The translations under genes and the position numbers were made by a program. The notes under the pieces are model-generated. The model made no database searches. It was given only the letters and a program-made list of their open reading frames with translations, and was not told where the DNA came from. 64,000 nucleotides of DNA from Escherichia coli (lineage in GTDB: Bacteria > Pseudomonadota > Gammaproteobacteria > Enterobacterales > Enterobacteriaceae), in the NCBI RefSeq assembly GCF_044324785.1, contig NZ_CP172127.1. The stretch is one strand, 5' to 3'. Shown piece by piece: positions 58,996-59,009 of the stretch. Numbering within the stretch: the first letter of the stretch is position 1; each line of letters opens with the position of its first letter.

Positions 58996-59009
58996 TTGAC
59001 AAATATCAA
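58996..59009. promoter_or_regulatory. FNR box at the fnr promoter (autoregulation)
   Basis: TTGAC-AAAT-ATCAA, 20 nt upstream of the fnr start codon. Confidence 0.7.

Follow-up and report, generated by a model that had tools for sequence, protein, structure and literature searches.

An FNR box over the fnr transcription start in Escherichia coli corresponds to the known autoregulatory operator

FNR recognises inverted repeats with the consensus TTGAT-N4-ATCAA (as quoted in PMC3688515), and the sites through which it represses transcription range from -125.5 to positions overlapping +1 (PMC3688515). Its own gene is among the repressed targets. In Table 1 of Myers 2013 (PMC3688515), fnr (b1334) is placed in category 2, that of operons under direct repression by FNR, with a ChIP-seq peak at 1,397,604 and one FNR site centred at -0.5 from the transcription start site (TSS); the table cites Mettert & Kiley 2007 for earlier evidence of binding and regulation at fnr. 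The same study reports that sigma-70 occupancy at fnr is reduced without O2, and its supplementary table lists fnr as "Repressed" across the three data sets compared (PMC3688515). The fnr site has also been described as spanning the TSS and causing negative autoregulation (PMC7349173), and autoregulation of fnr was predicted earlier for Yersinia, Pasteurellaceae and Vibrionaceae (Ravcheev et al. 2007, PMC1805755); the fnr promoter is not mentioned in the FNR ChIP-chip paper (PMC1802558). For fnr mRNA itself, Table 1 of PMC3688515 records no net change ('o') between aerobic and anaerobic wild type cells. The effect of the repression is therefore modest, and visible in comparisons of fnr- with fnr+ strains.

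Earlier work on this promoter distinguished a downstream from an upstream site. The [4Fe-4S] form of FNR reportedly footprints the downstream site, which is said to be needed for repression, while the predicted upstream site is reportedly left unbound by FNR, the upstream region being bound by IHF instead. Mutation of the ATCAA half-site in K-12 is said to abolish the FNR footprint or ChIP signal and to leave promoter activity unchanged.

Other sigma-70 promoters directly repressed by anaerobic FNR, like fnr, include ndh (-50.5) and can or hisL (-11.5; Myers 2013 Table 1). In these the FNR site is located upstream of, or across, the -10/-35 region, whereas the fnr site lies at the start, and among the repressed promoters quoted here from that table it is the one nearest to the start. 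Of ndh, can, hisL and fnr, only fnr forms a self-loop.

Here we analysed a 64-kb stretch of an E. coli genome (64,000 nucleotides, hereafter the window) that carries fnr. The features of the fnr promoter region, all on the plus strand, are as follows.

58968..58973, plus strand: putative weak -35-like hexamer TTACTT, with a 17-bp spacer to the -10 hexamer
58988..58996, plus strand: predicted extended -10 element TGtTAAAAT, whose TG occupies 58988-58989 and whose hexamer TAAAAT occupies 58991-58996, from position and conservation
58996..59009, plus strand: FNR box TTGACAAATATCAA, autoregulatory downstream site of the fnr promoter, at about -7 to +7, from sequence, Myers 2013 Table 1 and conservation
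59002..59003, plus strand: fnr transcription start, at 59002 (A) by dRNA-seq and at 59003 (A) by the -0.5 centre of Myers 2013
59003..59028, plus strand: short fnr 5' untranslated leader (about 26-27 nt) carrying a conserved GAGCA (59019-59023)
59029..59781, plus strand: fnr coding sequence, 250 aa plus stop, with the ATG at 59029-59031, from the RefSeq annotation of an identical region

The window contains a single copy of the box TTGACAAATATCAA, an inverted repeat of the form TTGAC-N4-ATCAA that, being palindromic, can be read on either strand. It agrees with the FNR consensus at 9 of the 10 specified positions, the sole mismatch being a C for T at position 5. There are 19 bases between the box and the ATG, which places the final base of the box 20 nt 5' of the A at 59029; the initial annotation, made from sequence, had put the site 20 nt upstream of the fnr ATG, and this is borne out when counting from the last base of the box. 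Matches to TTGATNNNNATCAA with at most one mismatch number 8 in the window, as compared to 3.57 expected from shuffled sequences, and 4 of 100 shuffles reach 8 such near-consensus boxes. Taken alone, a near-consensus FNR box somewhere in 64 kb is not remarkable and proves nothing. For a given 60-nt stretch 5' of fnr, the chance expectation is about 0.003 (3.57 x 60/64000). The question of chance is decided by the comparison across species described below.

This site and the K-12 fnr downstream FNR site (-0.5; Spiro & Guest 1990; Mettert & Kiley 2007; Myers et al. 2013) are the same element: the sequence, the distance to the ATG and the promoter context are identical, the FNR protein encoded in the window is 100% identical to that of K-12, and there is no difference within the site. 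Comparison with the mapped K-12 promoter, which the initial annotation had proposed as a check, shows that over 58820-59040 the window departs from K-12 MG1655 only at base 58880 (C in the window, T in K-12), which is some 123 nt upstream of the TSS. The further differences of this strain from K-12 also lie outside the site, and consist of the apparent absence of the Rac prophage and an extra MFS/HlyD/AraC cluster (see below). The 197-bp ogt-fnr spacer is present in 5402 of 5426 complete E. coli genomes, mostly at 99% identity or more. Because the spacer is one base off and the FNR proteins are the same, the K-12 fnr promoter data should transfer to the window. The fnr ATG lies at 1,399,526 in K-12. 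The published ChIP-seq peak at 1,397,604 falls about 27 bp from the centre of the box, which is 1,397,576.5 in the coordinates used for the peak, the K-12 sequence being identical.

We also considered a longer open reading frame that starts with TTG at 58972 (269 aa) as the start of fnr, and rejected it. RefSeq annotates the 250-aa protein, with the same start, in the identical stretch of another E. coli genome. In addition, the length between box and ATG varies among genera, which argues that the leader is non-coding and that the TTG is not the real start. Within the leader, GAGCA may be a weak ribosome-binding site.

To follow the box across species we used a scan for relatives of FNR with one genome per species, which gave 80 loci, 79 of them with upstream sequence; the counts below refer to these 79 plus the window, 80 in all. 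The loci range from Escherichia, Citrobacter, Salmonella, Klebsiella and Enterobacter out to Dickeya, Pectobacterium, Serratia, Sodalis and Yersinia, and all 80 upstream sequences are mutually distinct. Every one of the 80 carries TGnTAAAAT fused to TTGAY-N4-ATCAA. The left arm is TTGAC in 79/80 and TTGAT in a single sequence, that of Salmonella enterica subsp. arizonae, and the right arm ATCAA is invariant (80/80). The 4-nt spacer of the box takes 11 different forms, and the distance from box to ATG varies between 17 and 25 nt. The block 58986-59010 is almost invariant, with identity in the flanking columns falling to 10-60%. The box is therefore retained at orthologous fnr promoters, its arms conserved and its spacer less constrained, and a variable first spacer base flanked symmetrically by two invariant arms is what a dimeric regulator would be expected to leave. 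Constraints from the overlapping -10 and start site, and not FNR binding, could account for some of the conservation seen in the left half-site.

The position of the box relative to transcription initiation can be fixed from two independent published sources. A class I dRNA-seq start, RVS_(I)-1397577, is given by Romero et al. 2014 (PMC4681348, Table S2). The offset between U00096.2 and U00096.3 is 1,976, which we verified on fnrS (FWD_(I)-1407153 as compared to 1,409,129 in NC_000913.3); the corrected start, 1,399,553, precedes the fnr ATG by 27 nt and corresponds to window position 59002. The centre of the box is at 59002.5, and the published centre of -0.5 puts +1 at 59003. The two sources are thus 1 nt apart, within a run of three A residues, and the box spans roughly -7 to +7 either way; column 59003 is invariant in 80/80 sequences. 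We checked the position convention on the fnrS box, for which the same arithmetic reproduces the -42.5 of Myers 2013 Table 1. No fnr TSS coordinate was found in the supplementary data of the Cappable-seq and ROSE papers.

As for the core promoter, we infer from position and conservation that TGtTAAAAT acts as the -10 element of fnr. Its hexamer ends 6-7 nt before 59002/59003, a spacing that fits the mapped TSS, and its closing T is at the same time the opening T of the FNR box (58996). The hexamer TTACTT agrees with TTGACA at 2 of 6 positions; TTAnnn stands at -35 spacing in 78/80 sequences, and columns 58968-58970 are invariant. A scan of 58700-60000 for consensus promoters and terminators, which demanded at least 4/6 matches of each promoter hexamer, returned no match. 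The scan misses the fnr promoter because its -35 is poor (2/6) and the promoter depends on the extended -10; the fnr promoter appears to be of the extended -10 type with a poor -35.

The operator overlaps the core promoter and start of the gene for its own regulator: it shares a base with the -10 hexamer, it contains the mapped TSS, and the next gene downstream is fnr. We conclude that this 14-bp inverted repeat is almost certainly the operator that mediates repression of fnr by FNR itself. The evidence consists of the sequence, its identity to K-12, the start within the box, the published occupancy and repression by FNR in K-12, and the deep conservation. The proposal of the initial annotation that FNR negatively autoregulates through a site near its own TSS agrees with the K-12-identical promoter, with the repression reported by Myers 2013 and with the mapped TSS, which, rather than lying far from the box, falls within it (59002 by dRNA-seq).

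The most probable mechanism is the textbook one. In the absence of oxygen, FNR with its [4Fe-4S] cluster is dimeric and binds TTGAC-N4-ATCAA. At fnr the box covers the final base of the -10 hexamer, the stretch that has to melt and the TSS (about -7 to +7), so that a bound FNR dimer would compete with sigma-70 RNA polymerase, at the step of binding or of open-complex formation, and fnr transcription would drop. When oxygen is present the cluster is lost, FNR becomes monomeric and comes off the DNA, and the fnr promoter would be free. Steric occlusion would then be the physical mechanism of repression.

Other readings of the same 14 bases have to be weighed. Since the left half-site overlaps both the -10 hexamer and the start, and chance alone yields near-consensus FNR boxes at a rate of about 3.6 per 64 kb, the block might be kept only as core promoter (the -10 end, the discriminator, the TSS and the initially transcribed bases), in which case it would resemble an FNR site by coincidence and bind no regulator. 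This is highly improbable: ATCAA, at +3 to +7, is invariant in 80/80 although no sigma-70 element lies there, the first spacer position varies freely between symmetric invariant arms, as for a dimeric regulator, and at the K-12 sequence, which is identical, published work shows both FNR occupancy in ChIP-seq and repression that depends on FNR. We give similarly little credence to the idea that TTGACA (58996-59001) is the perfect -35 of a second, downstream fnr promoter, with the palindrome secondary. The hexamer is indeed an exact match to the sigma-70 -35 consensus, and TTGAC is found in 79/80 sequences although the FNR consensus prefers TTGAT. However, no -10-like hexamer stands 16-18 bp downstream, where the candidates are TGAGCA, GAGCAG and AGCAGA (59018-59025), the scan of 58700-60000 finds no promoter, and transcription from such a promoter would begin at or inside the start codon, whereas the mapped TSS is 59002.

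CRP (cAMP receptor protein) and FNR are of one family, and the TGA-N6-TCA core shared by their sites is contained in the fnr box, which could on this ground be read as a CRP operator and not an FNR operator. The base that distinguishes the two kinds of site is the outer one, in TTGA...TCAA for FNR as opposed to GTGA...TCAC for CRP. At the fnr box this base is of the FNR type in both arms, and invariantly so in 80/80 sequences, and the published ChIP-seq peak belongs to FNR; a CRP operator is thus extremely improbable here.

The autoregulatory FNR operator has two mildly new features, the non-consensus C of its left arm (TTGAC in 79/80) and its constant fusion to an extended -10. One idea is that the affinity of the operator is held below its optimum, which would set the FNR level at which self-repression begins, this set-point being selected across the order; we regard it as speculative and rather unlikely. 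Alternatively, the conserved C could reflect a simple promoter constraint on the base at -3, and the data do not separate this from affinity tuning.

Upstream of the promoter, the FNR-like sequence TTAAGGGTTTTCAA (58893-58906, centred at -103.5) was considered as a second operator and rejected: conservation of its left arm is poor, and in the peak a single site is counted by Myers 2013. It is overlapped by an 8-bp hairpin, ACCCTTAA-caac-TTAAGGGT (58881-58900), which lies 47 nt past the ogt stop, is followed by TTTT, and has a predicted energy of -8.7 kcal/mol (z = -2.1). The hairpin with its TTTT may be the ogt terminator. The IHF consensus WATCAANNNNTTR has no match with at most one mismatch in 58840-58995, and the IHF binding reported for the upstream region was thus not located by sequence.

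A second FNR-controlled promoter in the window allows a direct comparison. The FnrS small RNA gene lies on the minus strand at 45820-45937 (Rfam RF01796, 134.8 bits), 13 kb from fnr, and the box of its promoter, TTGAGCGAAGTCAA (45973-45986, minus strand), serves the same regulator and is a 14-bp palindrome of the same type as the fnr box. This box is centred at -42.5, as measured from the Rfam-defined 5' end, and Myers 2013 Table 1 gives a ChIP-seq peak for it. The window thus contains one FNR-repressed promoter (fnr) and one FNR-activated promoter (fnrS). At fnrS, with a Class II position, FNR contacts RNA polymerase and activates, whereas FNR at the start site of fnr acts as a repressor; it is the location of the box, and not its sequence, that determines whether FNR activates or represses.

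Two further FNR-like sequences, each with one mismatch, were noted in the window. TTGATCTAAATTAA, at 42418-42431 in the ompN-uspF spacer, lies 77 nt before the uspF ATG (42509) and is a candidate FNR activation site for uspF. TTTATTTACATCAA, at 60006-60019, lies within the uspE coding sequence about 70 nt past its start and is most likely a chance match.

Several other features of the window were recorded. At 42436-44053, uspF adjoins ttcA without a prophage between them (gene names here are inferred from ORF sizes and the K-12 gene order). The annotation of K-12 places the 23-kb cryptic prophage Rac at 1,411,899-1,434,958, with its start within the 3' end of ttcA; given the uninterrupted uspF-ttcA junction, the present strain therefore appears to lack Rac. 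Between smrA and mcaS there is a 3.5-kb accessory cluster (49282-52733) that K-12 does not carry, encoding a DHA2-family MFS efflux permease, an HlyD-family protein and a divergent AraC-family regulator. A 7-kb query containing this cluster is covered over at least 80% of its length in 1309 of 5426 complete E. coli genomes, approximately a quarter. Additional small RNAs above the Rfam gathering thresholds are MicC (40889-41009), McaS (52804-52899), RydC (5265-5328) and the sok antitoxin RNA (4554-4705), the last of which suggests a hok/sok locus.

The fnr box is the already known autoregulatory FNR operator, and there is nothing new in its identification. The only small addition made here is that the fusion of the extended -10 with the FNR box, including the non-consensus C, is invariant, with the one subspecies exception given above, across the sampled Enterobacterales. 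The identification matters little beyond correct annotation, and it shows that a real operator can be recognised from sequence alone. For the biology of the organism, the site belongs to the textbook circuit by which FNR is held at similar levels whether or not oxygen is present, and oxygen sensing thereby depends on the iron-sulfur cluster and not on the amount of FNR.
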